From: Bdellovibrionota bacterium
GTDB taxonomy: Bacteria; Bdellovibrionota_C; UBA2361; OMII01
Length of the DNA stretch: 64,000 nucleotides
Direction: 5' to 3'
NCBI GenBank assembly: GCA_044351795.1
Contig: JBILFA010000001.1
Location: forward strand, 28,094 to 92,093
Under the pieces are notes generated by a model. It was not told where the DNA came from and ran no database searches. It saw only the letters and a list, made by a program, of their open reading frames with translations. Numbering within the stretch: the first letter of the stretch is position 1; each line of letters begins with the position of its first letter. The translations under genes and the position numbers were made by a program. Shown in pieces: positions 7,437-26,095 of the stretch.

Positions 7437-7617
7437 GAAGTAACTAGGCAGCACCAATCGGAACGGAGCGGGGGAACAATTTCGCCTCGACACAGCGGAG
7501 CTGGTCGGTCTTGACAAAACCCCGAACGAATGGTCCCCTGCTCTAAGGGCTGCTCATATTGATTTTCAAGTCTCGGACAGGCCCCTAGGCCTGTGAACAT
7601 CAATAACGACCTCACCC

Positions 7618-10640: not shown

Positions 10641-10965
10641 CGATATCATGGTAAGCATATTCCATTGATTGCGCGATACCAAGTTTATAGATTGCTCTCG
10701 CATCAATGCTCGTCGGAAAAATCAGCTTGAAACACAGGATTTCCGCTTCATCAGCTACGCTCACGGGGCGAAGTATTCGCGAGGGGATGCGACCTGGCGG
10801 CGACAGACCGCCCCTAGAGTCCCCGACTCCACCTAAACAGCTTTTACCTTCAAATGCCAACCTCTGATTAATTGCGAAGTTGGAAGGTAACTCGCAGATT
10901 ACCCACGAGGCGTTACGGAATCTAAAAGACTGAAAGGCCCTATTCCCTGAAGTTCCTGCTTTATC

Positions 10966-11300
10966 GGGAGCTTTTCGCTTGGGTTTGCTGATGGATCTAT
11001 CGGGACGATTCACTACTTTGCGAACGGGAGTCGTAAGGTGCCTAAGGAGCGCTTTGAGGTGTTCTCCGACGGGCGTACTGCGGTGATTGAGAATTTTCGG
11101 GGTGTGCGGAGTTTTGGGTTTGCGGGATTAAAGAGCAAGCGCTTGTGGTCACAGCAGAAGGGGCATGCGGAGTGTGTGGGGAGGATGTTGTGATCCCTTC
11201 TTGGGAGGAGATCCGGAATGTTACGCGGGCTACTGTGTTGGCTCGGGAGGCTGTGCGGAGTGGGGTTGCGTTTCGGGTGTAGGAAGGCGGCTGTGTCGGT
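10966..11300 (+). repeat. repeat copy A1: 3'-terminal fragment of a Gfo/Idh/MocA-type oxidoreductase gene, with an internal 25-nt deletion, plus trailing hairpin
   Basis: Encodes FSLGFADGSIGTIHYFANGSRKVPKERFEVFSDGRTAVIENFRGVRSFG...GVAFRV*; near-identical to copies at 18480–18840 and 23045–23216. Lacks 'atgcgtttctgcgggcggtgcgtgg' relative to other copies. Confidence 0.8.
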
Positions 11301-11412
11301 CGCCGGGCGTTTGCAGCATCGACATACGTATGTTTTGGAACGATGTGGTTGTTCGCGAAGATGGTGCAGGTCGTAGCTCGAGTGCCCGGCGACCGGGGGA
11401 GGACGAAGGTCC

Positions 11413-12570
11413 CTACCCTTCTCCAAACAGATCGAGATACTCCCGATACAGAAACTGTCGATTCCTCGATTGTCCCGTGATCTCGCTGAGAATACCGACC
11501 TCGACGAGTTTAGCGACCAAGTCGTTTGCCGCAGGATAGGTAGTGCCGGTAAGGGTCTGCACGTGCTTCACGCTGAGGACTGGCTTCTCATACAAATGTT
11601 CTAGGATGCGGAAACCATTCGCCGCCGCACGTCCTAATCGCTCAGTGATCGCTGCTCGGTGGCTCTCGCGCAGAACTATGATGCGTCTCGCAGTTTCAGT
11701 GGCTTCGCCGCTAACCTCGGTGACCCCTGTCAGAAAGAACGCGAGCCACTCCTCCCACTCGCCGCGATCGCGAACGGCTTGCAATCGTTCGTAGTACTCG
11801 GAACGATGCCGCTTGAAGAAATGCGAGAGGTACAGAACGGGTTTGGTGAGAATCTCCTGTTCGCACAGAAGAAAGGTGATGAGCAGGCGCCCGACTCGGC
11901 CGTTTCCGTCCAGGAACGGGTGAATCGTTTCGAACTGCGCGTGCGCGAGTCCTATCTTGACCAGAAGGGGCAGCTCGTCTGCGGTATGAATGAATGTCTC
12001 CAGGGCTCCCAACAGAGCAGGAACTTCATGAGGGGGTGGAGGTACAAACGATGCCTCTCTCAGCGTGCATCCACTGGAACCAATCCAGTTTTGGCTCGCT
12101 CGAAGCTCGCCGGGGGTCAGACGCGATCCCCGAACTCCTTTCAACAGTCGGGCATGAATCTCTCGAATGAGCCGTACTGACACCGGTAGCTCAGAAAGAC
12201 GAGCTACCCCGTGATTCATGGCGTCAAAGTAGTTGATTACTTCATCCACATCACGCGGAAGGTCAGCTGATAGAACTTTTGCCTCTGCTGCGAGAAGATC
12301 CTGCAGGGAGCTCTGCGTACCTTCGATTTGGCTCGAGAGTACTGCCTCCTTTCGAACGTACATGTAGACGAATAGGTCTGGGTTCGGCAGGGTCTGAATC
12401 GAGCCATCCAGGCGGCCCAGTGCTCGGTCAGCTTGGGAGAGAAGAGCTTGGAGTTTTCCAGTTACGTGAACAGGAGGATTCGGGGGTAACTTGGTAGGCA
12501 TGAATGCTCGGTAACCCGTTGGTTGGGTTACGTATTGTCCCGCCCTGCTGGTACTGTACTCAGTGTCCAT
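11413..12570 (-). CDS. Fic/DOC family protein (putative AMPylator / toxin)
   Basis: Canonical Fic motif HPFLDGNGRVGR present (IHPFLDGNGRVGRLLITFLL); size about 385 aa. Confidence 0.85.
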   Translation of the reverse strand: MDTEYSTSRAGQYVTQPTGYRAFMPTKLPPNPPVHVTGKLQALLSQADRALGRLDGSIQTLPNPDLFVYMYVRKEAVLSSQIEGTQSSLQDLLAAEAKVLSADLPRDVDEVINYFDAMNHGVARLSELPVSVRLIREIHARLLKGVRGSRLTPGELRASQNWIGSSGCTLREASFVPPPPHEVPALLGALETFIHTADELPLLVKIGLAHAQFETIHPFLDGNGRVGRLLITFLLCEQEILTKPVLYLSHFFKRHRSEYYERLQAVRDRGEWEEWLAFFLTGVTEVSGEATETARRIIVLRESHRAAITERLGRAAANGFRILEHLYEKPVLSVKHVQTLTGTTYPAANDLVAKLVEVGILSEITGQSRNRQFLYREYLDLFGEG

Positions 12571-12684
12571 CTTTGCCTATAGCTCCGAGCCTTTAACGAC
12601 GGAGTCGGATGCCCGTTTTATTATCGCCAGACTTTAATATAGGAGGGTTTTCTATCCTTAAGCAAGGCAGGCTTTACTAAGCGA

Positions 12685-13135
12685 GGCGCTTTGAGGTGTA
12701 TTCCGACGGGCGTACTGCGGTGATTGAGAATTTTCGGGGTGTGCGGAGTTTTGGCTTCAAAGGATTGAAGAGCAAGCACTTGTGGTCGCAGCAGAAGGGG
12801 CATGCGGAGTGTGTGGATGCGTTTCTGCGGGCGGTGCGTGGGGAGGATGTTGTGATCCCTTCTTGGGAGGAGATCCGGAATGTTACGCGGGCTACTGTGT
12901 TGGCTCGGGAGGCTGTGCGGAGTGGGGTTTCGTTTCGGGTTGAATAGGGTTTTGAGGGTTCCGGCTTAAGGCGACCGACACGGTCGCCCTCCCAATGTGA
13001 TTCGGGATTGGTTGGGGGCTGGCGCGATCGGCGAGACCCGGTTCCGGCTTGAGGCGACCGGGACGGTCGCGGTCCATGCGGATTCGGGGATGGTTGAGGT
13101 CTCTGGCGCGGACGGCGGCACACCGTCCCTCCTAA
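12685..13135 (+). repeat. repeat copy S1: oxidoreductase 3'-fragment (…GVSFRVE*) plus hairpin module H1/H1'/H2
   Basis: Protein fragment EVYSDGRTAVIENFRGVRSFGFKGLKSKHLWSQQKGHAECVDAFLRAVRGEDVVIPSWEEIRNVTRATVLAREAVRSGVSFRVE. Followed by ggcgaccgacacggtcgcc (12970–12988), ggcgaccgggacggtcgc (13053–13070) and gcgcggacggcggcacaccgtcc (about 13107–13128). Confidence 0.85.
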
Positions 13136-13229
13136 GGGCACGTGGAGCGGTTGATGTTGGTGTTCACGACTACGGCTGGGACCTCGCGGCGGAAGGTCCG
13201 TGGGGTCCATCGATTTATCTTCATACTAC

Positions 13230-14147
13230 TCACAGTGAGAGGACCTTCTTCAGGTTCTCGAGCTGCCGCGCGTGCTTGCCGGGTTCCATCCTTGCGATAT
13301 TTTGAAGTTTCCACTGAATTCCAGGGAGCTGATCAATACCTGTAATGGGAATCAGATCCCATTGAGGTGCTCCAGCTTTGACGGAAACAAGAAACCTGCG
13401 CTCGTTGTCGCTCAAGTCAACTCTCAGCTTTTGAACAACCTCTGCTCGGGTGGCTTCGAGGCTTTCGTACGACACCGAGATTCGACTCATACCGACGAAC
13501 TCGCTCTGGAATATGGTGCGCATATCCAGATAGCTCGGATCGAGTAATTCGTGCATCGGCCTGCTGTGGCTTGCCAAATACAGTACGAATGCCTGCCGTA
13601 TCTGGGTTGTTATACCTTCATTTTCGAGAAGGAGCTTTGCATCGAAGAGATCTCTTGGATGTTGCCTATCGAGAACTGCACACAGTTTCCCGCCGAAGAC
13701 ATCTCCGAAGGACAGTGTGGTAACTTCCGCATATGCTGAAAATCGGGTTTGAGCTGATTCACAAAGCTCTCGTATCTCACACGGAAAAACACTTCCACGC
13801 AGTACGAAATTCGGCTCGATTTTGATGACCGCACCATTGGCCGAGAGAACGAGGCTTCCTATCGTTTTATCGAGTGGCCCTCATGCTTTTTGAACTTTAC
13901 TGTAAGGTACCGCTGCGCATATTCGGTCGGCGAGAGAAGAGAGCGCACGGCTGATACCCTCGATTGTACGCTCGCGACTCTCCAATGGAAGATACGTTAC
14001 ATCGATATCCACAGAGAGACGCGGCATTTCTCGCATGAAGAGGTTTATTGCGGTGCCGCCTTTGAGGGCAAAAACCTTCTGCTCAGCTACCAATGGCAAC
14101 ACTTGTAGTAGCAGCTCAACTTGACGCGAGTACCGCTCGTTGCTCAT
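13230..14147 (-). pseudogene. AbiEii/AbiGii-family nucleotidyltransferase toxin, disrupted by an in-frame TGA and a probable pair of frameshifts
   Basis: N-terminus KGGTAINLFMREMPRLSVDIDVTY (NTase GS…DxD motif). In-frame TGA at 13881–13883 followed by protein-like continuation GPLDKTIGSLVLSANGAVIKIEPNFVLRG. Conserved …FGDVFGGKL / AVLDRQHPRDLFDAKLLL segments lie in two frames around the A5 run at 13736–13740 and the site at about 13680. Confidence 0.6.
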
Positions 14148-14920
14148 CGGGATCCCTCATCAAAAAGGTCCGCTGGCAGTGTGAGGCGATATTTAGGGTG
14201 GAGTTTTCCGCTTTTCACTAATGTTCTATCGCCGCTGCCAAGGTCGATCTTGTCCAGATTCAATTTCTTTACCCACGGGAGTTTTAGCTCCTCGGCTAGG
14301 AGGAGAAAGAGGCGCTTTACCTTGATCGATGAGCAGCTTTCGAGAAGCTGCTGGACAAGCTTCGGACGTAGCGTCAGCAGTCCCGTCATGAGAAGGCGTG
14401 CTTCCGATAGGCTCTGATTCTTTGGCGCTGCGTGGAGCGTCTCCAGCATCGCACGTTCCCGTGAGGATACTTGGATTGAAAAGCTGCCGACGGTTTGTGA
14501 GGAGAGGCCAATGTCGTGAGGGAGTAGGTTCGTCGTCGCAAGCGTTATCGGGACACCCCAGTCGTGACGAGAGAACCAGCTGGGCAGGCGCGTTCCGGGA
14601 TCGGCGAAAAGTGCTACGTCCTCGCTGTCGAACTTGATAAAATGCGCAGCACCGTGATACGCCAAAGCGCTCTTACCCCCGAGATGAACAGGAAGCCTCG
14701 ATTGCTGCTGAAGGGCGAACAGACCGCCGCGCCAGTCAACCACATCACCAGCCTTTGCGAATGCTCCCCGACCGATGCCCACGAGCCACCCAGAGGTCCG
14801 ATAGTGATGAAGCAATACGTCGCTATAGCCGCGTTTCTTCAGAGTGGCGCTGGTAAAGACTGTCCCGCTGGGCCAGCTTAGTAAGAGCTGCTGTATTTTG
14901 CTTCGTTTTTCTGAAACCAT
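14144..14920 (-). CDS. AbiEi-family antitoxin (type IV TA), wHTH N-terminus
   Basis: 258 aa; 4-nt overlap with the abiEii start (ATGA); N-terminal region typical of AbiEi transcriptional-regulator antitoxins. Upstream AT-rich promoter carries a perfect palindrome. Confidence 0.6.
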   Translation of the reverse strand: MVSEKRSKIQQLLLSWPSGTVFTSATLKKRGYSDVLLHHYRTSGWLVGIGRGAFAKAGDVVDWRGGLFALQQQSRLPVHLGGKSALAYHGAAHFIKFDSEDVALFADPGTRLPSWFSRHDWGVPITLATTNLLPHDIGLSSQTVGSFSIQVSSRERAMLETLHAAPKNQSLSEARLLMTGLLTLRPKLVQQLLESCSSIKVKRLFLLLAEELKLPWVKKLNLDKIDLGSGDRTLVKSGKLHPKYRLTLPADLFDEGSR

Positions 14921-14971
14921 ACTTAATAAAGTAGCATATTTTCGTAGGACTACACTGTGATTTTATATTCA

Positions 14972-14994
14972 TTGCTTAAATTGAGCTTAAGCAA
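14972..14994. promoter_or_regulatory. candidate operator palindrome TTGCTTAA-N7-TTAAGCAA in the AT-rich abiEi upstream region
   Basis: Perfect 8-bp inverted repeat read directly in an unusually AT-rich about 200-bp stretch (14921–15120), 50–75 bp upstream of the abiEi start; AbiEi antitoxins are known to autoregulate via inverted repeats. Confidence 0.4.
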
Positions 14995-15189
14995 TATGTA
15001 TACATCTACTGCAACTGCCACTAATACTAAGCTAATCTAAGTAGTTACAATATATATGGCGATCGCTTATAGCTTTTCGAGCTAGGAATGCTAGGCGGGC
15101 TCATGTGCCGGGGCGCTACGAGTCTAACTACGAGAAGAAGGGGCTCGATTATCCGATCGGTTTCGTGCGCTGGACGGAGCAGCGCAATT

Positions 15190-15600
15190 TCGAAGCTGTG
15201 CTTTTGAGATGCATTCCGACGGGCGCACTGCGGTGATTGAGAATTTTCGGGGTGTGCGGAGTTTTGGGTTCAAAGAATTGAAGAGCAAGCGCTTGTGGTC
15301 GCAGCAGAAGGGGCATGCGGAGTGTGTGGAGGCGTTTCTGCGGGCGGTGCGTGGGGAGGATGTTGTTATTCCTTCGTGGGAGGAGATCCGGAATGTTACG
15401 CGGGCTACTGTGCTTGCTCGGGAGGCTTTGCGGAGTGGGGTTTCGTTTCGGGTTGAATAGGGTTTTGGGGGTTCCGGCCGAAGGCGACCGGGACGGTCGC
15501 GGTCCATGGGGTCGGATTCCGTCATAGCTGATGTCGAGGATCCAGGCGAACGGCGACCGACACGGTCGCCCTCCCAATGTGATTCGGGATTGGTTGGGGC
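15190..15600 (+). repeat. repeat copy S2: oxidoreductase 3'-fragment (…GVSFRVE*) plus hairpins H1' (15483–15500) and H1 (15552–15570)
   Basis: Near-identical to S1/S3/S4. Hairpin order H1'-H1 is reversed relative to S1. Confidence 0.85.
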
Positions 15601-15685
15601 CGCTGAGCTTAGCATGTGCAAGATGGGGGATATGGCTATCTATCACCCGATTGCTTAATTACAAAATCGGCGGTAATCTGTAACT

Positions 15686-16852
15686 ATGATCGACAGAGTA
15701 GTTAAGATACCGAAGAAAGGGCACTTTTTTCTCTTCGGCCCGCGCCAAACTGGGAAGAGTTCACTCGTAAGGGTAGCTTTTGAAGCACATGAGACACTCT
15801 CTATTAATTTGCTGCTCAGTCAGGAATATCGGCGACTGAAGCTAGACCCCGGGCTGATCGCGAGCGATGTTGGCGGCCGTGGGCCTGAGGTGCGTTACGT
15901 CGTCATCGACGAAGTACAGCGGGTTCCCGAGCTGCTCGATGAGATACACCACCTGATCGAATCGCCGAATGCACCTTACTTTGTGTTGACGGGCTCCAGC
16001 GCCAGAAAGCTCAAGCGTGCGAAGGCAAACCTCTTGGGTGGAAGAGCGAGCACTATCGAACTCTTCCCTCTAACCTATAAAGAACTCGGGGATCGTTTCT
16101 TCCTTGATCGAGCACTAGCATGGGGAACTCTTCCAAAACTGTACCTCGAGAACGACGAAGAGGAGCGCGCTACCTTTCTGCGCTCGTACGTCGACAACTA
16201 TCTCAAGGAGGAGATTCAAGCCGAAGCTGCGGTGCGAAACCTCTCGACGTTCCTGCGCTTCCTACCGCTTGCTGCCGAGTCAAATGGACAGGAGCTGAAC
16301 TTCTCGAAGATCGCGCGCGTGTGTCTGTCGAACCACAACACGATTAAATCTTACTATCAGATCCTGGAAGATACTCTCATCGGAAGATTTCTACTTCCTC
16401 TAGCAGGCTCGACACGACAACAGCTGTCGAAGAGACCAAAGTTTTATCTTTTCGATACGGGGATCATTCGAGCAATTCTAGGGCGCGAGCGTGCCCAACT
16501 ACACCCAGGCACGTACGAGTTTGGCGCACTCTTCGAGTCCTGGATCATCAACGAGGTGTGGCGGATAAATAGCTACTACAAAAAGAACCTACAGACATTT
16601 TTTTATCGTACCGACGCCGGTGCCGAGGTCGATCTGATCATCATCGATCCCCACCGCGCGAGGTACGCGATAGAGATCAAGAGCGCGAGCGACGTCGCAC
16701 CCGCGGATCTTGGAGCGGGCTTTGAGTCCTTAAGCGCTCACGGAGAGCTAGCGAAGCGTATCTGCGTAACAACGGGACCACGACCTTATTCGTCACAGGG
16801 AGTCGATTTTATGCCGTGGCGCGATTTTTTCGAGTGGCTCGTAGCCGTGTGA
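15686..16852 (+). CDS. AAA+ ATPase with C-terminal DUF4143-like domain
   Basis: Walker A GPRQTGKSSL, Walker B VVIDEVQ; architecture typical of the widespread ATP-binding protein (DUF4143) family. Confidence 0.75.
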   Translation: MIDRVVKIPKKGHFFLFGPRQTGKSSLVRVAFEAHETLSINLLLSQEYRRLKLDPGLIASDVGGRGPEVRYVVIDEVQRVPELLDEIHHLIESPNAPYFVLTGSSARKLKRAKANLLGGRASTIELFPLTYKELGDRFFLDRALAWGTLPKLYLENDEEERATFLRSYVDNYLKEEIQAEAAVRNLSTFLRFLPLAAESNGQELNFSKIARVCLSNHNTIKSYYQILEDTLIGRFLLPLAGSTRQQLSKRPKFYLFDTGIIRAILGRERAQLHPGTYEFGALFESWIINEVWRINSYYKKNLQTFFYRTDAGAEVDLIIIDPHRARYAIEIKSASDVAPADLGAGFESLSAHGELAKRICVTTGPRPYSSQGVDFMPWRDFFEWLVAV

Positions 16853-16904
16853 CGGTGGTTACTTAGACTCTGCAAGGCAAAGACATCGGCAGGAATTCCT
16901 ATTG

Positions 16905-17085
16905 AGAACGTGTCGGGTGGGGGCGTTTTGGGGTGGCGGTTATCGTGGGGTCGGACGTGTGGCGACCGGGACGGTCGCGGTCCGTGGGGATGTAATTCCG
17001 TAATGGCTGATGTCGATGATGCACGCGAACGGCGACCGACACGGTCGCCCCTCCCAATGTTACATGTATCTGGAATGGTTATTAC
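16905..17085 (+). repeat. hairpin-only repeat unit (no coding fragment): H1' 16961–16978 and H1 17031–17049
   Basis: …gtggcgaccgggacggtcgcggtccgtgggg…gaacggcgaccgacacggtcgcccctcccaatg; same module as downstream of the S-copies. Confidence 0.75.
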
Positions 17086-17141
17086 GTTGCCATTCTAGGC
17101 ATTTAATAGTGCTATACATTATCATTAACTTCTCCTAGAAT

Positions 17142-17651
17142 GTGTTTATGGACATTATCCGAGCGATTGTAACGCAAGTCGACGAAGAGCTTTCTCGCCT
17201 CACTGACGCGCGTCGCTCAGAGGATCTGCCAGGGCTCAAGCCGCTTGAAATCAAAGTTTTAGGGCAGATGTCCTTGCTAATGGATCCGGTCGGGCAATCG
17301 CTTAATCCTGCGGCGACTCGAGATATCGACGCTCTGTTGATGGGGGATCTCCTAGCGATAAATATATTCAGAGCCGTAATAAAATCGCACAGCCTTGTGT
17401 TTGACGAGCTCAGTAAAGAAATTTGGCTACCCGAGACTGCTGTGTTTATCCCGTACCATTCATCTGCGCACCTGATTGTTTCCTATGTGGATTCGATCTC
17501 GGCGTTAACGAGCAAAGCGATAAAGGCGAAAGAGAAGAATCGATATCTGATACGAAGAGGGCTAGAGGTTTTTGGAAAGCCACTCGAGGAAGCTATCGTT
17601 CGGTACGGCGGAGATATCAACTACTTCGTAGTCGGCAAGCTGGGGCTGTAA
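17142..17651 (+). CDS. hypothetical protein (possible minimal nucleotidyltransferase-like; uncertain)
   Basis: 169 aa. Weak GQMS…(17 aa)…RDIDAL resembles an NTase Gly-Ser…DxD pattern but is unconvincing. First gene of a 2-gene operon. Confidence 0.4.
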   Translation: MFMDIIRAIVTQVDEELSRLTDARRSEDLPGLKPLEIKVLGQMSLLMDPVGQSLNPAATRDIDALLMGDLLAINIFRAVIKSHSLVFDELSKEIWLPETAVFIPYHSSAHLIVSYVDSISALTSKAIKAKEKNRYLIRRGLEVFGKPLEEAIVRYGGDINYFVVGKLGL

Positions 17652-17652
17652 T

Positions 17653-18159
17653 ATGGCCAAACGAGCACCAAAGATCTCACAGAGTCTGGAGCGCAGAGTA
17701 TTTGGCTTTTTTGTTGCCAAAGGGCTTCTTATCGCACCTCACATAGCGCCGAAGAGCTCTGTGAAGCTGCGAATCGCCGATGTTGTGAATGTTGGGCTTC
17801 ATGTTGAGCCCCGAATTATCGAGGTGCTGCCGGCAGCGCTGCTCCACTTTCCGCGCTCTTTCATCGGATATGAGGATATGCCGGAAAAGTTGAGAGAGGC
17901 GCTCGACTGTATTCGCTCTGGACGGGAGTCAGGGCCCTCTCTCGCAGGTATTCCGTACAAAGCGATACTTCGCTGGGCAAACGAACCTCTGCCTGATAAG
18001 CGAACACGGCCCGAGAGAGACCGCCGTATAACAAAGGCCTTTAGGCTGAAGCGGGCTGCTCTCGAGAAGCTGAAAACTGATGCCTCTTCGGCAGGATTAA
18101 CGGAGACTCGGTACCTGGAGGAGCTTCTACTCGGCGGGGAATTTCAGGGCGAGAATTAA
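17653..18159 (+). CDS. hypothetical protein, basic; second gene of coupled pair
   Basis: 168 aa; start ATG 1 nt after the upstream TAA (translational coupling); no recognisable motif. Confidence 0.4.
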   Translation: MAKRAPKISQSLERRVFGFFVAKGLLIAPHIAPKSSVKLRIADVVNVGLHVEPRIIEVLPAALLHFPRSFIGYEDMPEKLREALDCIRSGRESGPSLAGIPYKAILRWANEPLPDKRTRPERDRRITKAFRLKRAALEKLKTDASSAGLTETRYLEELLLGGEFQGEN

Positions 18160-18177
18160 AGCCTTCTAGAGAGGTAC

Positions 18178-18289
18178 GAGGGCAAAAACGTTCTGCTCAG
18201 CTACCAATGACAGCACTTGTAGTAGCAGCTCAACTTGACGCGAGTACCGCTCGTTACTCATCGGGATCCCTTATCAAAAGGTTCGCTGG
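18178..18289 (+). repeat. partial duplicate of the abiEi/abiEii junction (copy of about 14070–14175)
   Basis: ggcaaaaacgttctgctcagctaccaatgacagcacttgtagtagcagctcaacttgacgcgagtaccgctcgtt(a/g)ctcatcgggatccct… matches 14070–14170 with a few mismatches, fused directly to repeat A2. Confidence 0.75.
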
Positions 18290-18870
18290 TGGAGCTGGAT
18301 GGGCCAGTCTCGATGGTAATGACGGTCACTGCTGGGCGGCTTCCGGCGAATAGTTGGATCATGGATGAGGCTGAAGGTGGTGGGCGAGTTATTAGTGAGG
18401 TGTGCCACTTTATCGATCTGATGGTGGCTGTGTCGGGATCTTTGGTTAGTTCGATCTCGGGGTTGGGATTACGGGAGAGTGGACGGGAGTTGCAATCGGC
18501 GAGCTTTTCGCTTGGGTTTTCAGATGGATCTATCGGGACGATTCACTACTTTGCGAATGGAAGTCGCAAGGTGCCTAAGGAGCGCTTTGAGGTGTTCTCG
18601 GATGGGCGTACTGCGGTGATTGAGAATTTTCGGGCTGTGCAGAGTTTTGGGTTCAAGGGCTTAAAGAGCAAGCGCTTGTGGTCGCAGCAGAAGGGGCATG
18701 CGGTGTGTATGGATGCGTTTCTGCGGGCGGTGCGGGGGGAGGATGTTGTTATTCCTTCGTGGGAGGAGATCCGGAATGTTACGCGGGCTACTGTGCTTGC
18801 TCGGGAGGCTTTGCGGAGTGGGGTGGCGTTTCGGGTGTAGGAAGGCGGCTGTATCGGTCGCCGTTCGTTC
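18290..18870 (+). repeat. repeat copy A2 (longest): about 180-aa C-terminal portion of the Gfo/Idh/MocA-type oxidoreductase (…GVAFRV*) plus trailing hairpin
   Basis: VELDGPVSMVMTVTAGRLP…DEAEGGGRVISEVCHFIDLM…FSLGFSDGSIGTIHYFANGSRKVPKERFEVFSDGRTAVIENF…EEIRNVTRATVLAREALRSGVAFRV*; followed by gaaggcggctgtatcggtcgcc. Confidence 0.8.
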
Positions 18871-18902
18871 GACCCCACCCCTGCGCCATCTTCGCAGTTG
18901 CA

Positions 18903-18950
18903 GTCGGCTAGCTTTTCGCTTGGGTTTGCTGATGGATCTATCGAGGCTCT
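18903..18950 (+). repeat. mini-fragment of the same oxidoreductase repeat (…LQSASFSLGFADGSI…)
   Basis: agttgcagtcggctagcttttcgcttgggtttgctgatggatctatcga matches 18507–18552 and 10966–11000. Confidence 0.6.
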
Positions 18951-19016
18951 TCCCCCTGCCGGATCACCGAGGAATTGCATTGACGCTGACGCCGTCCGGC
19001 TATACCATGGATAACT

Positions 19017-20231
19017 ATGGATTGGCCAAGTATATGGATACAAAGAGATTTTGAAGGTCTCTTAGAGTCTGCCTCGTCTCTGGGGCCCTTCTCGGTGCTG
19101 CTCCTACTTGGCCCGAGACAGGTAGGGAAAAGCTCGCTTCTCAACCGGTGCACGCCACTCGGCACCCAGAAAGTGAATCTCGATGATTTGGACGTCCGCA
19201 CTCGAGCGAATCAAGATCCTGCGTTGTTCGGCCGGGAGCTGGAGGTTCCGCTCCTCATCGATGAAATACAGTATGCGCCTGCTCTGTTGAGTCAGGTCAA
19301 AATACTTGCTGACCGCTTCCCGCGAGAGCTCAAGATCTTTCTCACTGGCTCGCAGAGTTTCGAGGTGATGCCTGGTGTCCGCGAAAGCCTCGCGGGTCGG
19401 GTTGCGATTCTCAATCTTTTCGGACTCTCGCTATCCGAGAAGGGGCTATCTGACGAGACTTCGCCCATCGAGTTTTTCAAGGAGTTTTTCATCGGAACAT
19501 TTCCAGCACTCCGTACCAGTGAGAATCCTGTCTGGACGCGCTACATGAGCAGTTACGTGCAGACCTACGTTCAAAGAGATGTCGGTGAACTGCTGGGTAT
19601 CCAAAAGCGCAGAGAGTTCGAACTCTTCTTGAAAGCGTGCGCACTGCGGACTGGCCAGCTGATTAACTATGAAGAATTGGCGCGGGATTCGTCAGTATCG
19701 GCAGCCACTGCTAAAGAATGGCTATCGATCTTGGAAGACAGCTTCCTTATTCGGCTCGTGCATCCTCATTTCAACAATCGCACCAAACGATTGATAAAGA
19801 CACCGAAGCTTTACTTCCTGGACACTGGCCTGTGTGCCTATCTCGCAGGATGGCGTGATAGTGAGCAGATTCGTGTCGGGCCGTGGGCTGGAGCGTTTTT
19901 TGAGACTGCAGTTTTCGGTGAGCTAGTCAGATACTTTTCGCACCGGGGCCTCGATTATCAGATTCACTTCTGGCGAGACAAGGACGGTAATGAAGTTGAC
20001 TTTCTAGTAGAAACGGGGGGAAGAATCTACCCAATCGAGGTCAAGCTCGGCACCCCTAATCCACGCGATCTTTGCTCTCTCGAGAGACTACAAGTTCCGG
20101 GTATCGAAGACGGTACTGTCGTCTCTATGGCTATGAGGGCAGCTGAAGGTGGGAGGAGAGCGCATGTCAAGGATCGATGGGTAGCGGCTGGTGTCAGAAT
20201 CGATAGAGTATTCGGACGTGCTGCAGTCTGA
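19017..20231 (+). CDS. AAA+ ATPase with DUF4143-like domain (paralogue of 15686–16852)
   Basis: Walker A GPRQVGKSSLL, Walker B LLIDEIQ; same architecture as 15686–16852. Confidence 0.75.
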   Translation: MDWPSIWIQRDFEGLLESASSLGPFSVLLLLGPRQVGKSSLLNRCTPLGTQKVNLDDLDVRTRANQDPALFGRELEVPLLIDEIQYAPALLSQVKILADRFPRELKIFLTGSQSFEVMPGVRESLAGRVAILNLFGLSLSEKGLSDETSPIEFFKEFFIGTFPALRTSENPVWTRYMSSYVQTYVQRDVGELLGIQKRREFELFLKACALRTGQLINYEELARDSSVSAATAKEWLSILEDSFLIRLVHPHFNNRTKRLIKTPKLYFLDTGLCAYLAGWRDSEQIRVGPWAGAFFETAVFGELVRYFSHRGLDYQIHFWRDKDGNEVDFLVETGGRIYPIEVKLGTPNPRDLCSLERLQVPGIEDGTVVSMAMRAAEGGRRAHVKDRWVAAGVRIDRVFGRAAV

Positions 20232-20257
20232 GGCTGTGGTGGCTTCATAGCGTTCTC

Positions 20258-20600
20258 TGACGGGCGCACTGCGGTGATTGAAAATTTTCGGGGTGTGCGG
20301 AGTTTTGGGTTTAGGTGTGTGAAGAGCACACGGCTGTGGTCGCAGCGAAGGGGCATGCGGAGTGTATCGATGCGTTTCTGCCGGCGGTGCGGGGGGAGGA
20401 TGTTGTGATCCTTTCTTGGGAGAAGATCCGGAATGTTACGCGGGCTACTGTGCTTGCTCGGGAGGCTGTGCGGAGTGGGGTTTCGTTTCGGGTTGAGTAG
20501 GGTTTTGGGGGTTCCGGCTTTAGGCGACCGGGACGGTCGCGGTCCATGGGGTTGTGATTCCGTAATAGCTTATGTCGATGATGCAGGCGCACGGCGGGGG
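20258..20600 (+). repeat. repeat copy S3: oxidoreductase 3'-fragment (…GVSFRVE*) plus H1' (20523–20540) and a degenerate second hairpin
   Basis: Starts 27 nt after the ATPase stop. Several substitutions (e.g. …VVAAKGHAECIDAFLPAVRGEDVVILSWEKIRNV…) suggest an older or decaying copy. Confidence 0.8.
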
Positions 20601-20671
20601 AATACATTCGAGTGGATTCGTTCATCAAAAGACGACAACATGTAATTAGCTGTTTATTTAATGATGCTTGT

Positions 20672-20965
20672 ATGATCGACTTAAACGACATTCACTCTCT
20701 CTCTGATTTTCAGCGGAACGCTAAGGACCACATCGAGCGCTTGAAGAAAACCGGAAAGCCTGAGGTCTTAACCGTCAACGGGAGGGCAGAAGTAATTGTC
20801 CAAGACGCCCAATCGTACCAAGCGCTCATAGAAACGATCGAGCGTCTCGAAACCCTCGCTGGTCTCCGACTTGGGCTTCAGGAGGTCGAGCAAGGCAAGA
20901 CCGCATCGGCTCAAGATGTCTTTACTCGCATGCGCACTAAGCACAAGATTCCCAAGCGCGCATGA
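20672..20965 (+). CDS. Phd/YefM-family type II antitoxin
   Basis: MIDLNDIHSLSDFQRNAKDHIERLKKTGKPEVLTVNGRAEVIVQDAQSYQALIETIE… matches the Phd/YefM fold pattern. Start probably at the internal ATG 20672 rather than 20612. Stop overlaps the next ORF's ATG (ATGA). Confidence 0.7.
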   Translation: MIDLNDIHSLSDFQRNAKDHIERLKKTGKPEVLTVNGRAEVIVQDAQSYQALIETIERLETLAGLRLGLQEVEQGKTASAQDVFTRMRTKHKIPKRA

Positions 20966-21066
20966 TCTTCAAAGTACAGATTACCCAGCAGGCCGAAGCC
21001 GAATTAAATGAAGCCTACGAATGGATCGCCAACCAGTCGCTAGAACAGGCAGTGGTCTGGTTCAAG
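20962..21066 (+). pseudogene. RelE/ParE-family toxin, N-terminal about 35 aa only; truncated by insertion of repeat copy S4
   Basis: MIFKVQITQQAEAELNEAYEWIANQSLEQAVVWF is a typical ParE N-terminus. Reading frame then runs directly into the repeat (KGLKSKRLWSQQKGH…GVSFRVE*). Confidence 0.65.
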
Positions 21067-21320
21067 GGTTTAAAGAGCAAGCGCTTGTGGTCGCAGCAGA
21101 AGGGGCATGCGGAGTGTATGGATGCGTTTCTGCGGGCTGTGCGGGGGGAGGACGTTGTTATTCCTTCGTGGGAGGAGACCCGGAATGTTACGCGGGCTAC
21201 TGTGTTGGTTCGCGAGGCTGTGCGGAGTGGGGTTTCGTTTCGGGTTGAGTAGGGTTTTGGGGGTTCCGGCCTTAGGCGATCGGGACGGTCGCCGTCCGTA
21301 GGGATGTTATTCCGTAATGG
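21064..21320 (+). repeat. repeat copy S4 (short, begins at …KGLKSKRLWSQQ) plus hairpin ggcgatcgggacggtcgcc (21275–21292)
   Basis: Direct sequence identity to the other S copies; 5' boundary lies inside the parE coding sequence. Confidence 0.8.
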
Positions 21321-21371
21321 CTGAGGTCTATGAGGTACGCGCACGGGAAACGTGAGGATTGCTCTGGCGAT

Positions 21372-22652
21372 TTACTCTGTAGCATGAGCCACTCTAAATG
21401 CCGGGGCCATTCGGGCTTGCTCACTCTTGCCGATCTTTATCCCCTTTGCCTCAATCGGCCATGCTTTGACTGCCTTTATGACTCGGTTGATTGTCGCCTT
21501 GGCTTGTTTCGCATTCAACCGAAAGAAAGGTGCAACCTCTAACGCGAGGTCCAGTGACTGTGCGTTGTCGGTCTCGGATATATTAAGTAGTAGTCCATCT
21601 CCTAGGGGATTTGGGTTTACGTCGTACATGGGAGAGAGCGCCCACCCTTGCGGAGTAAGGAGGAATCCGTGATTACGCAGATGATCGTCTACGTTGGAAA
21701 CACATATCGAGAAAACGATTCGAGTCCACAGCTCATGCAGGTCTCTTTGAGGGCAAGCTCCGCTTCGAACAATAAGCTCTGCAAGCTCTAGATAGCTTGC
21801 GCCATCTGAACCGCTGTCGCCATCATTTCGCTGAAGAAGGGTCATGGCAGAAGCAAAATGAATTCTCGAGCGCCGAGCACCTCGATCAAATCGCTGCGTA
21901 AGAAAGGTATGGTGATCAGAGGCCAGCGTCCTCAAGCGCACGTTTGCCACATCTAGCCCGGCTTTTTTAGCAAGGGTGTGAGCCAGGTACTCCCATGCTC
22001 CGACATCATAGGTGTCACCTTTGCTGGGAAATTTCGCAATCCACAGAGCACCTTTAGGATCAATCACACTTGCCTTGGGTCTCGCACCTCCAAGAGAAGC
22101 CCCTGGAGCCATGAGCATAGAGAGCCATTTCTTGTAGCCAGGCTTGGTTTCAGCTCCGCTTTTCTCTAGCTGTAGGCTTGCGTGCTCTAGCTCGCGAAGC
22201 GATGTCCAGGGTGGTGCTGCGTAGGCATGATCGTCATCGAGGAAGGGGCCATCGGCGCTTGTCTTGAATCGTAAGCCTCCCATGCGGTGACCATCGTAGA
22301 CCCCCAGGAGGTAGTCAGACTCTCGAAGTGGCACAACTGCCCTACCCTCCTCTCGAGCTCGTTGGGCTTCCCGGCGGTCCATGAGTACTCGGCCCCATCG
22401 GTCCGGGCTGGAATCCAGGAAGAGGTTGAAGCTACCTGCTCCTTCTGGGGCGTATTGAACTCCGGTATAGAGAGCAAGCGAGGGATCCAGGTTTTGAGCG
22501 TTCGGAGATTGCAACCACTCCTTGTCGTACTCAAATGCAAAGATCTCTCTACCCCTTCCAGGAGAGGCGTACAGAGTACCGAGCCTCTGCGGGTTCTCCA
22601 TACCGATCCAGTCGGCCCACACCTCGATGCGCTTTCTCTCTCCCTTTCGCAT
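21372..22652 (-). CDS. hipA: HipA-family serine/threonine kinase toxin
   Basis: About 426 aa; HipA N-terminal coupling domain plus C-terminal kinase-like region (GGARPKASV…WIAKFPS, DDHLRNHGFLL with catalytic D-x-H-x-x-N). Confidence 0.85.
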   Translation of the reverse strand: MRKGERKRIEVWADWIGMENPQRLGTLYASPGRGREIFAFEYDKEWLQSPNAQNLDPSLALYTGVQYAPEGAGSFNLFLDSSPDRWGRVLMDRREAQRAREEGRAVVPLRESDYLLGVYDGHRMGGLRFKTSADGPFLDDDHAYAAPPWTSLRELEHASLQLEKSGAETKPGYKKWLSMLMAPGASLGGARPKASVIDPKGALWIAKFPSKGDTYDVGAWEYLAHTLAKKAGLDVANVRLRTLASDHHTFLTQRFDRGARRSRIHFASAMTLLQRNDGDSGSDGASYLELAELIVRSGACPQRDLHELWTRIVFSICVSNVDDHLRNHGFLLTPQGWALSPMYDVNPNPLGDGLLLNISETDNAQSLDLALEVAPFFRLNAKQAKATINRVIKAVKAWPIEAKGIKIGKSEQARMAPAFRVAHATE

Positions 22653-22660
22653 GGTGTGCT

Positions 22661-22981
22661 CTACGTGCGCCTCATTTTGGGCGCACGCTCCTTTGGTTTG
22701 AGCTCAGAGTCTTGCAGCTTTCGCCCCAACACATCATCCCTTCCCAAGTGAGCAAGGTCCTCCTGGAGCCCCAAGGCGGCAAGAACATTGACGTAGGCAC
22801 CCATGGCTACGCTCCCATCGCCACGCTCGATGGAGCGTAGGGTCGGAAGAGATATGTCCGCTCGCTCCGCTACGATTTGGCTTGAGAAGCGCCGTCGTAG
22901 CCTAGCTAGCCTTAGGTTCTCTCCCACTTGGCGTAGAAGGCGCTGTGCCGAGGGTAGAATGACAGGTGTACGCTTGGCCAT
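22661..22981 (-). CDS. hipB: XRE-family HTH regulator (HipB-like antitoxin)
   Basis: Cro/C1-type HTH (LRLARLRRRFSSQIVAERADISLPTLRSIERGD) immediately upstream of hipA, 9-nt spacer. Real start probably MAKRT (22981). Confidence 0.7.
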   Translation of the reverse strand: MAKRTPVILPSAQRLLRQVGENLRLARLRRRFSSQIVAERADISLPTLRSIERGDGSVAMGAYVNVLAALGLQEDLAHLGRDDVLGRKLQDSELKPKERAPKMRRT

Positions 22982-23044
22982 AACAGCAAATATAATTACC
23001 AATAAAATGCTTTATTGCAACTTTATTTTCACCTATTTTAAGAG

Positions 23045-23400
23045 CACGTGCGTGTGGTCGCAGCAAAAGGGGCATGCGGAGTGTATCGATGCGTTTCTGC
23101 GGGCGGTGCGGGGAGAGGATGTTGTGCTCCCTTCGTGGGAGGAGATCCGGAATGTTACGCGGGCTACTGTGTTGGCTCGGGAGGCTGTTCGCAGTGGGGT
23201 TGCGTTTCGGGTGTAGGAAGGCGGCTGTGTCGGTCGCCGTTTGTTGGACCCCACCTCTGAGCCACCTTCGCAATCGACATGATCGTCAAATGCAGGCGTA
23301 TGTCGATGGTGCCAACGCACGGCGACCGACAGGGTCGCCCTCCCCGGGGATTCGGGGAGGGTTGAAGGCTCTGGCGCGGACGGCAGCACGCCGTCCCTCC
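23045..23400 (+). repeat. repeat copy A3: oxidoreductase 3'-fragment (…GVAFRV*) plus H1 (23320–23338), a GGGGAGGG-type stem (23337–23364) and H2 (23373–23396)
   Basis: …WSQQKGHAECIDAFLRAVRGEDVVLPSWEEIRNVTRATVLAREAVRSGVAFRV*; ggcgaccgacagggtcgcc; ccctccccggggattcggggaggg; gcgcggacggcagcacgccgtccc. Confidence 0.8.
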
Positions 23401-23422
23401 TGGGCCATCGGCGTTTGCGATT

Positions 23423-24110
23423 TCAGCGAGCTAATGAACAAAACGTCTGAATTTGAGCAAATATCTTTTCTGCTCTCACCCGTTCGGACCGATGTAGGCA
23501 TCCATACACTGCATCTATGAAATCCTGGTCTTGCAATAGGACGCTGAATTGATTGCGAAGGAACCCTCTCACTTCCCTATCGGCCGTTACCAGCTTATCG
23601 ACGAAATTACTACAGCCGTCGATTACCAATACTATATCTTCAATATCGCTGGAGCCGCGGTAATCGTTCTGGCCCCGCGAATGAAAGGCCTCAAGCTTGG
23701 TCGCGATGAAACATGCAAGAGATAGTATCTTTATCTTGGTACCGGAGGGCAGCGAATACTCCTGACACTCTTGATATCCCTTGTCATACCATCTGTTCGA
23801 AAAACCAAGTATGTCTTCCGCCAAGGGCATGACATCAACGGTTATGTTTTTATAAATCCATCGGCAGATCGGGGCTCCAACCCTGGAATCATTTGCAAAG
23901 CCTTTTCGTCACAGCTCATAGGAGAGTTCGTCGAACTGCTTTTTGGATCCTACTTCCACGATGCAATCGACATCCTCAGTAGGGCGAGATTCAGGAGCTC
24001 CCTTACTATCGATATACAAGGAGGCAGTGGCTCCACCTACGAAAACAGCCTGACTCAACAGTTACCCGAGGCCTGCTGCTACTATCTCTAATCTTTCAAT
24101 ATTGGTGTTC
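23423..24110 (-). pseudogene. minimal nucleotidyltransferase (AbiEii/MNT-like), apparently frameshifted
   Basis: One frame gives LSQAVFVGGATASLYIDSKGAPESRPTEDVDCIVEV (GG…S…DxD NTase motif) ending in a stop just before the 135-aa ORF 23423–23830 in another frame. No single open frame spans the gene. Confidence 0.4.
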
Positions 24111-24127
24111 ATGCGATTGGGACACAG

Positions 24128-24690
24128 TCACGCTACACCGCCAAGCTCAACTCCGAACCTCTTTTCGAGTTCTCGCTTGGCAATCTTCTGCTCACGGACC
24201 CTACCTATACGTAGGGCATCGACTAATGAGAGAAGCTCGTGCAATTCTCTATCCTTGGACGCCGCGAATGGCGCGCTCGAATAGAGGGGCGTTACCGAGT
24301 GCCCCCTGATATCTCCATCAGGGAATGGCCACACGTACTGATCTTCCTTTGCGCTCACGATACCCTTTGAAAGTGGTAGTGCGGAATGAGCAGTCGCTAT
24401 ACCTCGAACCACCGGACCAAGCTCGACGGGAAAAACATACTTCAATCCATACACAAGAAATTCCAAGGCATTCCGCTTAAGCACCGCTTTCTTATCAGAG
24501 CTCAGTAGTTGGGATCTGACGAGCCGCTCGAGCCCATGCGAAATCTCTGAGGGGCTTACCCCTACATCTACCGCTAGATCAATCACTCTGGGGGTAGCCT
24601 CCAAGGTGAGTATCTTGAGCAGTATCAGGATATCTTGTGGTTTTAACGGTGAGGTTCTTCGCATAAGAGATCTTGCCTCCTCCATAACTA
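24128..24690 (-). CDS. HTH-domain protein (AbiEi-like / transcriptional-regulator antitoxin candidate)
   Basis: Putative wHTH region ILILLKILTLEATPRVIDLAVDVGVSPSEISHGLERL. 3' end 17 nt from the NTase gene. Annotated 5' end (24736) overlaps a perfect palindrome, so the real start is probably downstream (about 24650–24690). Confidence 0.45.
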
Positions 24691-24704
24691 TCATACTATG
24701 CATT

Positions 24705-24731
24705 TTGTGATTTGCAAATTGCAAATCACAA
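24705..24731. promoter_or_regulatory. perfect 27-bp palindrome TTGTGATTTGCAA-A-TTGCAAATCACAA at the 5' end of the HTH gene (candidate operator)
   Basis: Read directly: ttgtgatttgcaaattgcaaatcacaa, symmetric about AATT. Confidence 0.5.
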
Positions 24732-24837
24732 CACAAATAGTTTTAATAATTTACCCCCATCTCAGGCGACACGGGCGCTGTTACCGGATCGTATGAGGGG
24801 TAAATTGCCATGTCTTGAGATGCCCCATTGCGCCGGC

Positions 24838-24919
24838 TCACTTTTCGCTTGGGTTTGCGGATGGGTCGATTGGGAACATTCACTACTTTGCCAACGGTAG
24901 TCGTAAGGTGCCTAAGGAA
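24838..24919 (+). repeat. 3'-truncated fragment of the oxidoreductase repeat (FSLGFADGSIGNIHYFANGSRKVPKE|), interrupted by the REP/RAYT unit
   Basis: cttttcgcttgggtttgcggatgggtcgattgggaacattcactactttgccaacggtagtcgtaaggtgcctaaggaa then diverges. Confidence 0.65.
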
Positions 24920-25012
24920 GCGAGGCAAAACCCCTCCCTGCTGCGAAAGCGGATCTTGGGTTGCTCTTCAATTTTCACGACGGTGAAAAATCCTCAATGT
25001 ATCGCAGCGGGC

Positions 25013-25035
25013 AAAGTCGTGACAGTCACGACTTT
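25013..25035. repeat. REP-like hairpin AAAGTCGTGA-cag-TCACGACTTT (left flank of RAYT gene)
   Basis: Perfect 10-bp inverted repeat; related to the GGGAAAGTCGTG…CACGACTTTCCC hairpins at 25743–25771 and 26141–26168. Confidence 0.75.
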
Positions 25036-25703
25036 ACCACTTTTGGCCGACCCATTTTAGGAGGGTGAGCCATTACCCCATATTCTCTCTCCAAAGAATC
25101 GAGAAAGTCCGTCGTACCCGTGGGCAGGTCGCGGAATGTACATCTCCTCAGTTGAGCTACATCCTCAGGATTCTCGCTGACAGCCAGCCATGATTCCCAA
25201 TCCGTCTTGCTCCGGAGTCTTTCGGCGTAGGGGCCCTCGGTCGAAATGAGCGGGTCAGCGCTGCCTGCGCAGTGAGCACGAGCGCTCGACCATGCATAAT
25301 CGGTTGCCTGCCGCACCATATGGGCCTTGACTGGATTCTGCAGAATATAGCGGACGGCAGTCCAAAAGAATCGGTCGTCAACGGGACTGGAGTAAAACCG
25401 AGCTTGCCAGAGGTGTCCGGTCCAGCCACCCCTGGCGTTAATGTACTCTGCGTACCGCTTGTGCGAGGTTTGGAATGTCCACTGCAGAGAATCCTTTTCC
25501 AATGGTACCACGAGGTGGTGCACATGATTTGTCATCAGCGCATAAGTCAAGACTTGGGCGCCGTGCCGGGCTGCGCTCTGAGCCAAAAGGTTTAGGTAAA
25601 CCTCCCTATCCCCATCACAGAAGAATACATCCTGCCTGCGCCCCCCGCGTTGGGTCACATGGTGTGGAATGTTTGGAATTACGATTCGACCGCGTCTTGC
25701 CAT
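25026..25703 (-). mobile_element. IS200-like Y1 (HUH) transposase, REP-associated (RAYT-like) / TnpA_IS200 family
   Basis: HxH motif (TNHVHHLVVP) and catalytic Tyr region (WTGHLWQARFYSSPV); about 225 aa. Flanked by matching palindromic hairpins. ORF-finder start at 25763 lies inside the hairpin; MARRGRIV at 25703 is the likely start. Confidence 0.8.
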
Positions 25704-25771
25704 GCTGCTAATTCGGCATCCAAGGGCAGAAGTTGCGTAAAGTGGGAAAGTCGTGGCTGTCACGACTTTCC
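25697..25771. repeat. REP unit copy 1 (direct repeat containing hairpin GGGAAAGTCGTG-gctg-TCACGACTTTCCC)
   Basis: …gctgctaattcggcatccaagggcagaagttgcgtaaagtgggaaagtcgtggctgtcacgactttccc; duplicated at 26096–26168 with 5 mismatches. Confidence 0.8.
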
Positions 25772-26095
25772 CGCCAAGCTGTACTCGCTCGAGAGAGTAT
25801 TTGGAGGGGGGTTAAGAAGCGTCTGCGAAGCGGACATACAGCTGCGGTTCCCGGCTAGTTTGGAGATGCTATCAAGTTACCGGTAGGTTATGCGGCTGGG
25901 AGTAGTTCAAGTCGCGTACTCTTCGGATATAGTATTCCGTTTGGGATTGATGGGGTGTTCAGGGCGGCGGGGGTTGCGGGCGCAACTGCTCGGCTGTGTC
26001 AAAGGTCTCCTTAGGCGCTAGATCTGCCCGGATACGATCGAAATGGACGGTTTTGGACGATTTCTGCTCTGTCGAAGCAGGGGGGGGCGCCTTGC

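Follow-up and report, generated by a model that had tools for sequence, protein, structure and literature searches.

Remnants of one sugar oxidoreductase gene between defence and toxin–antitoxin modules of a Bdellovibrionota genome: a probable displacement array

A large glycan-biosynthesis region of a Bdellovibrionota bacterium contains an island of ~14 kb in which pieces of a single gene recur between unrelated defence modules. The region was analysed over 64,000 nucleotides (nt) of assembly GCA_044351795.1 (contig JBILFA010000001.1, positions 28,094 to 92,093 of the forward strand), which we call the window and number from its first letter. The recurring gene, ox, encodes a bi-domain Gfo/Idh/MocA sugar oxidoreductase and is the last conserved gene bordering a hypervariable island, whose cargo is defence or toxin–antitoxin modules. 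The island is bounded by a divergent asnB gene (8685-10706, minus strand) and a RAYT-like Y1 transposase gene (25026-25763). A search for repeats, and BLAST using the longest copy as query, place the direct-repeat family at 10.9-24.9 kb, with repeat lengths of 48 to about 550 bp, and every ox piece in the window has the plus orientation. The pieces were mapped by BLASTN and TBLASTN against the intact 752-aa gene of two relatives, L001 and L081 (8324-10582), which serves as the parent; parent positions are given in nucleotides, the stop codon being 2257-2259. The pieces, together with one scrap of a neighbouring gene, are as follows.

10963-11283, plus strand: c1, the leftmost copy, parent ~1913 to stop, in which 25 bp are deleted internally at a GTGG repeat
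12674-12947, plus strand: c2, parent 1991 to stop, with the 9-mer AAGCGAGGC at its left junction
15107-15460, plus strand: c4, in which 15107-15202 (parent 978-1073) is fused directly to 15203-15460 (parent 2005 to stop)
16909-17050, plus strand: ox remnant, the final ~14 nt of the gene and two flank hairpins
18178-18289: AbiE scrap fused to c5, a 93% duplicate of 14064-14176 (AbiEii start and AbiEi end)
18290-18840, plus strand: c5, the longest copy, parent ~1716 to stop, with a GFO_IDH_MocA_C3 match
18896-18943, plus strand: c6, a 48-bp internal scrap (parent 1907-1952) without the 3' end
20252-20500, plus strand: c7, parent 2014 to stop, with a 1-nt frameshift, beginning ~20 nt past the stop codon of the second ATPase gene
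21059-21252, plus strand: c8, parent 2066 to stop, fused in frame to a truncated ParE
23037-23216, plus strand: c9, parent 2080 to stop
24834-24919, plus strand: c10, an internal piece (parent 1908-2001) ending in AAGCGAGGC

Seven copies thus reach the 3' end of ox (c1, c2, c4, c5, c7, c8 and c9), three pieces are internal only (c6, c10 and the mid-gene piece of c4), and one remnant keeps only the last nucleotides with the hairpin flank. A first-pass annotation of this DNA had described nine copies with a common 3' end. The repeats are real, but two of those listed, at 18903 (c6) and 24838 (c10), are internal, and only the latter had been so flagged; the mid-gene piece at 15107-15202 and the remnant at 16909-17050 were missing from the list, and the leftward extension of c5 at 18178-18289 is not ox. 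A stretch first read as a further ox fragment ('c3', 14064-14176) is actually the 5' end of AbiEii, duplicated upstream of c5. The internal deletion of c4 spans ~930 bp and lies at a GCT microhomology, and the c4 region is colinear with the intact ox and following ATPase gene of L081. At the other end of the array, c1 sits 257 bp from the asnB start. As the annotation had stated, no intact parent gene was found in the 64-kb window with the parent as BLASTN and TBLASTN query. The open reading frame (ORF) at 32895-35153, considered as the missing parent because it is also 752 aa long, is a GH65 glycoside hydrolase.

Downstream of their stop codons the copies fall into two types. Copies c1, c5 and c9 end GTG TAG and continue into GAAGGCGGCTGTGTCGGTCGCC (the type-A flank), while c2, c4, c7 and c8 end GTT GAA/GAG TAG, followed by the hairpin GGCGACCGGGACGGTCGC. 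The flanks located in the window are listed here.

11286-11304: type-A flank hairpin of c1
12948-13140: hairpin flank of c2
15483 and 15552: flank hairpins of c4
18841-18895: type-A flank of c5
23217-23401: type-A flank of c9 and further hairpins

The flanks of c7 and c8 both break off precisely at the second hairpin's edge. The annotation's claim of one shared stop codon and hairpin module, made for all copies but the last, therefore holds only in part: the window has two types, and the relatives bring the number of different 3' flanks to four or more. The hairpin motif GGCGACCG....GGTCGC has 25 matches against 0.66 expected, all within 11286-23339. In all sequence examined it is confined to the 3' flanks of ox copies, the lone intact gene of L001 among them, so that it is the native flank of ox; the idea of a genome-wide repetitive extragenic palindrome (REP) was rejected on the same grounds. 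The flanks fold as short separate hairpins (z-scores ~-1.6), with weak attC-like folding. An Rfam scan of 9-28 kb returned a single chance microRNA match and nothing else, and in a promoter and terminator scan of the island sites were no commoner than in shuffled sequence, with none inside ox copies.

The cargo was identified by PADLOC and Pfam. It is compared below with L081 and with two further islands, L162 and L163, which were found separately, via protein look-ups, and which both carry partial ox copies.

11413-12570, minus strand: Fic/SoFic defence protein of 385 aa (SoFic E=1e-122), ~99% identical to L163
13230-14147, minus strand: AbiEii, 305 codons, full length, with a single in-frame stop at codon 89
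14144-14920, minus strand: AbiEi
15686-16852, plus strand: ATPase1, AAA_14/DUF4143 (PDC-S01 candidate defence gene), 88% nt identity to L081 and L162
17142-18159, plus strand: two-gene operon (169 and 168 aa), 92% identical to L081 and L162
19017-20231, plus strand: ATPase2, AAA_14/DUF4143 (PDC-S01), 96-97% identical to L081 and L162 and 100% in L160 (Logan SRR27426722)
20612-20965, plus strand: Phd antitoxin, intact
20962-21058, plus strand: ParE, first 33 codons only, the same in L161 (JGI 3300042906)
21372-22652, minus strand: HipA
22661-23002, minus strand: HipB-like helix-turn-helix (HTH) protein
23423-24736, minus strand: PDC-M21, a candidate two-gene defence system (B 23423-23830, A 24128-24736)

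The cargo named in the annotation is borne out for Fic, AbiE, both ATPases (AAA_14/DUF4143), HipBA and Phd–ParE, of which ParE is truncated. What had been called an HTH–nucleotidyltransferase (NTase) pair at 23423-24736 matches PDC-M21 in PADLOC (A E=3e-44, B E=3e-36), and parts of it recur in L162 and L163. AbiE is intact in L162, unlike AbiEii of the window with its in-frame stop. ATPase1 follows the ox gene in both L081 and L162, and shares just 31% identity with ATPase2. The two-gene operon found no Pfam, NCBIfam or PADLOC family and may be an uncharacterised defence or toxin–antitoxin pair; it moves as a module between the islands of the window, L081 and L162, and its homologues occur at 38-70% identity in many metagenomes. 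At 20962-21252 (plus strand) the 33 ParE residues and ox residues 689-752 form a chimeric ORF of 96 aa beside the intact Phd, and L161 is identical there.

The annotation itself had raised the possibility of assembly artefacts. Independent samples reproduce several junctions at 100% identity: L160 matches the window at 18914-20377 and covers the c6, ATPase2 and c7 junctions, L161 matches at 20315-22904 and covers those of c7, Phd, the truncated ParE, c8 and HipBA, and a 10.3-kb JGI contig has the gene order of the window from c4 to c10. The array is therefore not an assembly artefact, and since the ox copies diverge pairwise by 4-20%, they are not collapsed or expanded identical repeats either. 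Short-read assemblies break at the ox repeats, as expected.

Comparison with relatives shows that the partial-copy array is lineage-specific: among 159 ox-homologue loci from many phyla, extra partial copies were found only in L081, to which L162 and L163 add two islands. In L001 the intact gene and its hairpin flank are followed by a decayed AAA_14 ATPase and then polysaccharide genes, with zero extra copies, and outside ox this locus has no synteny with the window. L081 carries the intact gene, ATPase1, a deleted RAYT, ATPase2, 164 bp, ox from 1937, the two-gene operon and a RAYT, with a photolyase further along, as in the window. L162 has at least five ox copies. It begins with AbiE, ox from 1551, ATPase1, a deleted RAYT, ATPase2 and ox 1943-2013 fused to 2179-2259, continues with a Gp49/HTH pair, ox from 1972, a 151-aa gene, a truncated PDC-M21A and ox from 1987, and ends with the two-gene operon, a RAYT, a 219-aa gene and an old ox copy from 2117. 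The order in L163 is PDC-M21A, ox 1908-1943 fused to 2046-end, Fic, c2 and AbiEii. Modules are thus common to the islands in varying order and number, always with same-orientation ox remnants between them. An intact ox upstream of the array is present in L081 but not in the window. The pre-insertion state, with ox followed directly by the two-gene operon, was not seen among homologues of the operon proteins, which gave only short contigs or distant relatives.

Across four genomes there are at least 14 distinct 5' boundaries, at 978, 1551, ~1716, 1907-1913, 1937, 1972, 1987, 1991, 2014, 2066, 2080 and 2117 among others. One and the same junction is found at different lengths in different places. 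Between AbiE and ox it exists in three states, with ox from 978 (c4), from 1551 (L162) or from ~1716-1727 with AbiE cut to 110 bp (c5), and after ATPase2 ox starts at 2014 in the window versus 164 bp followed by ox from ~1937-1943 in L081 and L162. Internal deletions lie at direct repeats of 3-6 bp: GCT in c4, GTGG in c1 and TGCGGA in L163. Taken together, the orthologous junctions and the repeat-flanked deletions indicate that the variable 5' ends result largely from deletion of longer copies. Some copies have lost the 3' end instead; the c10 orthologue in L163 shares the left flank of c10 but runs on to the ox 3' end. In P0029, a JGI contig of 1,036 bp from a further related sample, a long ox pseudogene has lost the internal stretch between two 'GAL'-coding repeats and its C-terminus is scrambled, which shows this kind of decay at work elsewhere.

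The cuts in cargo genes are one-sided. Cargo is truncated only where it abuts the next ox copy, as with ParE (33 aa), the AbiE scrap and PDC-M21A in L162, and never on the side where a flank meets its cargo; this asymmetry supports units with one homologous and one illegitimate end. When all copies are aligned together with their flanks, neither an identical core sequence nor equal-length duplications are seen to bound the units. Pfam scans of ~60 window ORFs (those of at least 110 aa window-wide, and smaller ones in the island) found no integrase, reverse transcriptase or other recombinase among the ORFs searched across the 64 kb, and the precomputed Pfam gene table of the L162 island has no integrase; L081 and L163 are annotated in part. 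The earlier argument that simple site-specific tandem integration does not account for these repeats is borne out.

Sequence variation among the copies carries a second line of evidence. In 15 copies compared over 59 shared codons, the variable sites at codon positions 1, 2 and 3 number 16, 13 and 33, of 59 each. The pooled ratio of nonsynonymous to synonymous divergence (pN/pS) is 0.30, with 0.17-0.43 between copies within the window, values that come from only 59 codons and from non-independent pairs. Pseudogenes diverging in place should approach 1, so a ratio of ~0.3 suggests that divergence accrued mostly in functional genes, and points to different functional donor alleles as the origin of the ox copies. 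The several unrelated 3' flanks and the range of module identities to relatives, from 88% (ATPase1) to 97% (ATPase2), agree with such an origin.

Exchange among the repeats is visible as well. Through Fic and AbiE the window matches L163 at ~99% identity, but it diverges strongly at 12745-13140, the 3' part of c2 with its flank. In a tree of copies, orthologous copies are not mutual closest relatives, and the copies cluster partly by genome. All four combinations of the mid-copy variant set and the 3'-end type occur among c1, c2, c4 and c5. The L081 copy matches the first copy of L162 on its left side and the third on its right side, as loop-out between repeats would produce. These patterns indicate that the copies are mosaics of each other and that gene conversion took part. 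The suggestion that an ox 3' end with its flank serves as a recombination module thus holds in a loose sense, as a homology patch with demonstrable exchanges.

The right edge of the array is formed by a further element, which we describe here since it bears on one of the alternatives.

25010-25772, minus strand: RAYT-like Y1 transposase unit with its own REP hairpins (gene 25026-25763)
11954-12463 and 15551-16314 of L081: REP–RAYT–REP units
4396-4887 and 11066-11825 of L162: REP–RAYT–REP units

The best NCBIfam match of the gene is REP_Tyr_transpos, at 61 bits under the 80-bit cut-off. Its REP, AAAGTCGTGrCwGTCACGACTTT, is found only at 25015, 25749 and 26146, beside the RAYT gene, and differs in sequence from the ox-flank hairpins. 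Occupying three different junctions in three genomes (window, L081 and L162), the REP–RAYT–REP unit is clearly mobile or recombinogenic; in the two relatives it stands in place of the final codons of ATPase1 and the two-gene operon. One copy of the unit has an internal deletion, and one insertion is accompanied by a partial hairpin duplication.

Both sides of the island (1-10700 and 36000-62000) hold glycosyltransferases, a MurJ-like flippase, DegT aminotransferases, epimerases and two AsnB-like amidotransferases. The left glycan cluster shares no nucleotide similarity with the genes that precede ox in L081 or L001, suggesting that the polysaccharide locus was switched and that the break fell where c1 begins. 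Further to the right, the segment 38001-40000 shows a strongly negative AT skew (-0.26) over a 759-aa ORF without Pfam match (38450-40729), and the right end of the window holds an erythromycin-esterase-family gene (62548-63909, Pfam E=4e-128).

We consider it probable that the array arose by sequential homology-anchored displacement, followed by recombination between repeats and by deletion decay. Cargo would arrive on DNA of a related strain, already joined to the donor's ox 3' end, and this DNA would be a linear fragment or else a circle that had looped out from a different array. RecA-type recombination would fix it in the ox gene of the recipient, and the far end would be closed by illegitimate joining inside the resident ox 3' region, or the circle would enter whole by a single crossover. 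To judge from the layout, the previous ox 3' end, now 5'-truncated, would be pushed downstream with the older cargo, and as each capture displaces the older end in the same direction, all scars would share one orientation. Recombination between the ox repeats then reorders, deletes or duplicates modules and converts the repeat sequence, and the non-functional copies shrink through deletions between short direct repeats, sometimes cutting into the cargo on their left. In the lineage of the window the intact ox would itself have been lost. The ox copies would accordingly be scars and homology patches, a view that we hold to be better than even, rather than products of a dedicated copying enzyme.

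Several observations weigh against this reading. Among the genomes compared there is no pair in which a single insertion makes the whole difference and both of its junctions can be read, so while recombination between repeats and deletional erosion can be seen directly, the entry step is one that we infer. The breakpoints are clustered, three at 1907-1913 (with three different left flanks) and about seven at 1972-2017, and a hot spot or site preference is possible. The 9-mer AAGCGAGGC, absent from the parent, is present at 12678-12686 (left junction of c2) and at 24911-24919 (right junction of c10), and could be the mark of a staggered-cut insertion rather than of a microhomology crossover; the c2/c10 pair looks like the two reciprocal junctions that a single crossover, or a single staggered-cut insertion, would leave, their order being circularly permuted. 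There is no intact ox to the left of the array in the window, which requires an additional loss event, and the pN/pS estimate has the narrow base already mentioned (59 codons, non-independent pairs). Finally, the source genome is seen over 64 kb only, and a recombinase acting in trans is possible. The longer GCGAGGCAAAACCCCT recurs in L162 at 7910-7925, just 3' of the 151-aa NTase-like gene, and the shared sequence may be what one illegitimate crossover, or the insertion of a circle, left at its reciprocal junctions.

How far could other processes account for the same layout? The strongest competitor, though still unlikely, is a purely internal origin, in which one block of ox 3' end and cargo was amplified in tandem by unequal crossing-over inside one genome, after which cargo was replaced and the copies diverged in place. 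The two AbiE-ox contexts of the window (c4 and c5), the nearly equal left boundaries of c1 and c10, the two paralogous ATPases and the partial clustering of copies by genome all fit such amplification, and unequal crossing-over is probably a contributor. It has no means, however, of bringing in new cargo, and a pN/pS of ~0.3 between window copies is unexpected for pseudogenes diverging in place; moreover there are several unrelated flank types, the cargo modules are mutually unrelated, the two ATPases share just 31% identity, and module identities to relatives span 88-97%. Slightly less likely again is an integrase acting in trans on integrase-less cassettes, similar to those of integrons or cis-mobilizable elements (CIME), at an att site within the 3' end or hairpin flank of ox, with boundaries blurred by later deletions. 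The breakpoint clusters at 1907-1913 and 1972-2017, the hairpins behind every copy, the exact cuts of the c7 and c8 flanks at the second-hairpin edge and the AAGCGAGGC common to the c10 and c2 junctions would suit it, as would the cargo, toxin–antitoxin cassettes being typical of chromosomal integrons. Against it stand the lack of an integrase in the window and in the L162 gene table (with L081 and L163 annotated in part), at least 14 distinct boundaries without a common core, cargo genes of mixed orientation that are truncated at junctions, and flanks made of short separate hairpins (z ~-1.6, no Rfam match) instead of one attC-like imperfect hairpin.

The two remaining explanations invoke enzymes that would mobilise or copy the repeat itself. 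The Y1 transposase at 25026-25763 might move hairpin-bounded units with variable lengths of ox by an HUH-type single-strand mechanism, and a RAYT-like gene does lie at the island edge, with REP-RAYT-REP at three different junctions, each cutting the last codons of a gene. However, its REP sits only beside the RAYT gene and is unlike the GGCGACCG....GGTCGC hairpins, which are found already behind the single intact gene of L001, and the 5' boundaries of the ox copies have no hairpin; we regard this explanation as very improbable. Least credible of all, and rejected here, is the first-pass annotation's own proposal that the ox 3' end was copied by replication, template switching or a process like reverse transcription, taken here to include diversity-generating retroelements (DGR). 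A constant 3' end with variable 5' truncation recalls LINE elements only superficially: c6, c10 and the mid-gene piece of c4 have no 3' end, truncations can be traced to deletions of longer orthologous copies, and, with flanks of several types and largely synonymous divergence, the copies do not stem from a single template. No reverse transcriptase was found in the 64 kb. The adenine mutagenesis of a DGR was rejected as well, since consensus A sites carry the fewest substitutions of any base (18/182). 

Displacement also has to be compared with known arrays. In tandem accretion of integrative and conjugative elements (ICE) and CIME, partial 3' ends of the target, a protein or tRNA gene, separate accessory blocks in one orientation, but accretion needs an integrase, a fixed att core and fixed-length duplications, and none of these was found here. 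Chromosomal integrons, and clusters of attC sites lacking integron-integrases (CALINs), hold short cassettes rich in toxin–antitoxin genes, with a recurring structured repeat, and newer cassettes push older ones along. Here, in contrast, no intI was found, the repeats differ widely in length and are pieces of a gene, not attC sites, and the cargo is of mixed orientation and truncated at junctions. The likeness of displaced modules to integron arrays was also drawn for the T6SS, or type VI secretion system, of Vibrio cholerae (PMC5361080). There, arrays of effector–immunity modules are explained by sequential displacement, or homology-facilitated illegitimate recombination, without an integrase (Kirchberger et al. 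2017, PMC5361080): a conserved upstream stretch anchors the incoming DNA, the non-homologous end is joined illegitimately, older modules and displaced gene 3' ends are moved downstream, and strains swap arrays by homologous recombination. The upstream anchor, the downstream displacement and the failure to find an integrase are shared with the present array. On the other hand, T6SS cargo consists of immunity genes kept against kin, whereas here it comprises diverse anti-phage and toxin–antitoxin modules, and there are many more scars, in a better state of preservation (at least seven in 14 kb). The 'orphan' arrays of Rhs and contact-dependent inhibition (CDI) loci arise by C-terminal displacement and consist of silent fragments in which decay proceeds through frameshifts and stops (Jackson et al. 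2009, PMC2935791). They were put down to homologous recombination with DNA that was acquired laterally and may have been circular (PMC2935791), and in both respects, decaying fragments and proposed recombination with lateral DNA, our array resembles them. Rhs/CDI repeats, however, are the conserved core ahead of a fused variable toxin tip, while here the repeat is the end of a metabolic gene, the variable part consists of unlinked, self-contained defence and toxin–antitoxin operons in either orientation, and the anchor gene is lost in the window. Traits of a displacement array, such as fragments in the same orientation, with variable 5' truncation and followed each by different genes, are present. 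We therefore think it likely that this is a well-preserved displacement array with a metabolic gene as its anchor and defence or toxin–antitoxin modules as its cargo.

How defence and toxin–antitoxin systems without mobility genes gather at chromosomal hotspots is still poorly understood. The array, read as a product of displacement, keeps a readable scar from each acquisition, and relatives stand at earlier stages, with an intact gene and no extra copy, with one extra copy, or with five or more. It would be a natural record of how homology-anchored recombination and illegitimate joining can build a defence island, and would extend the idea of displacement arrays from polymorphic-toxin genes to a metabolic gene bordering a surface-polysaccharide locus. 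For annotation there is a practical warning, as the many small 'dehydrogenase' ORFs called here are scars, not genes. More speculatively, and with a low probability, the ox 3' end and its hairpin flank might form an integrase-free, RecA-driven cassette platform, from which modules lying between two ox repeats loop out as circles by host homologous recombination, move into another cell and re-insert at any ox copy. The breakpoint clusters and the shared AAGCGAGGC keep such shuttling of circles alive as a reading, and the c2/c10 pair could be the footprint of an excised circle. If true, ox 3' ends would be kept because arrays that retain them can go on exchanging modules, and the platform would be a functional analogue of the integron for anti-phage and toxin–antitoxin modules in this Bdellovibrionota lineage.

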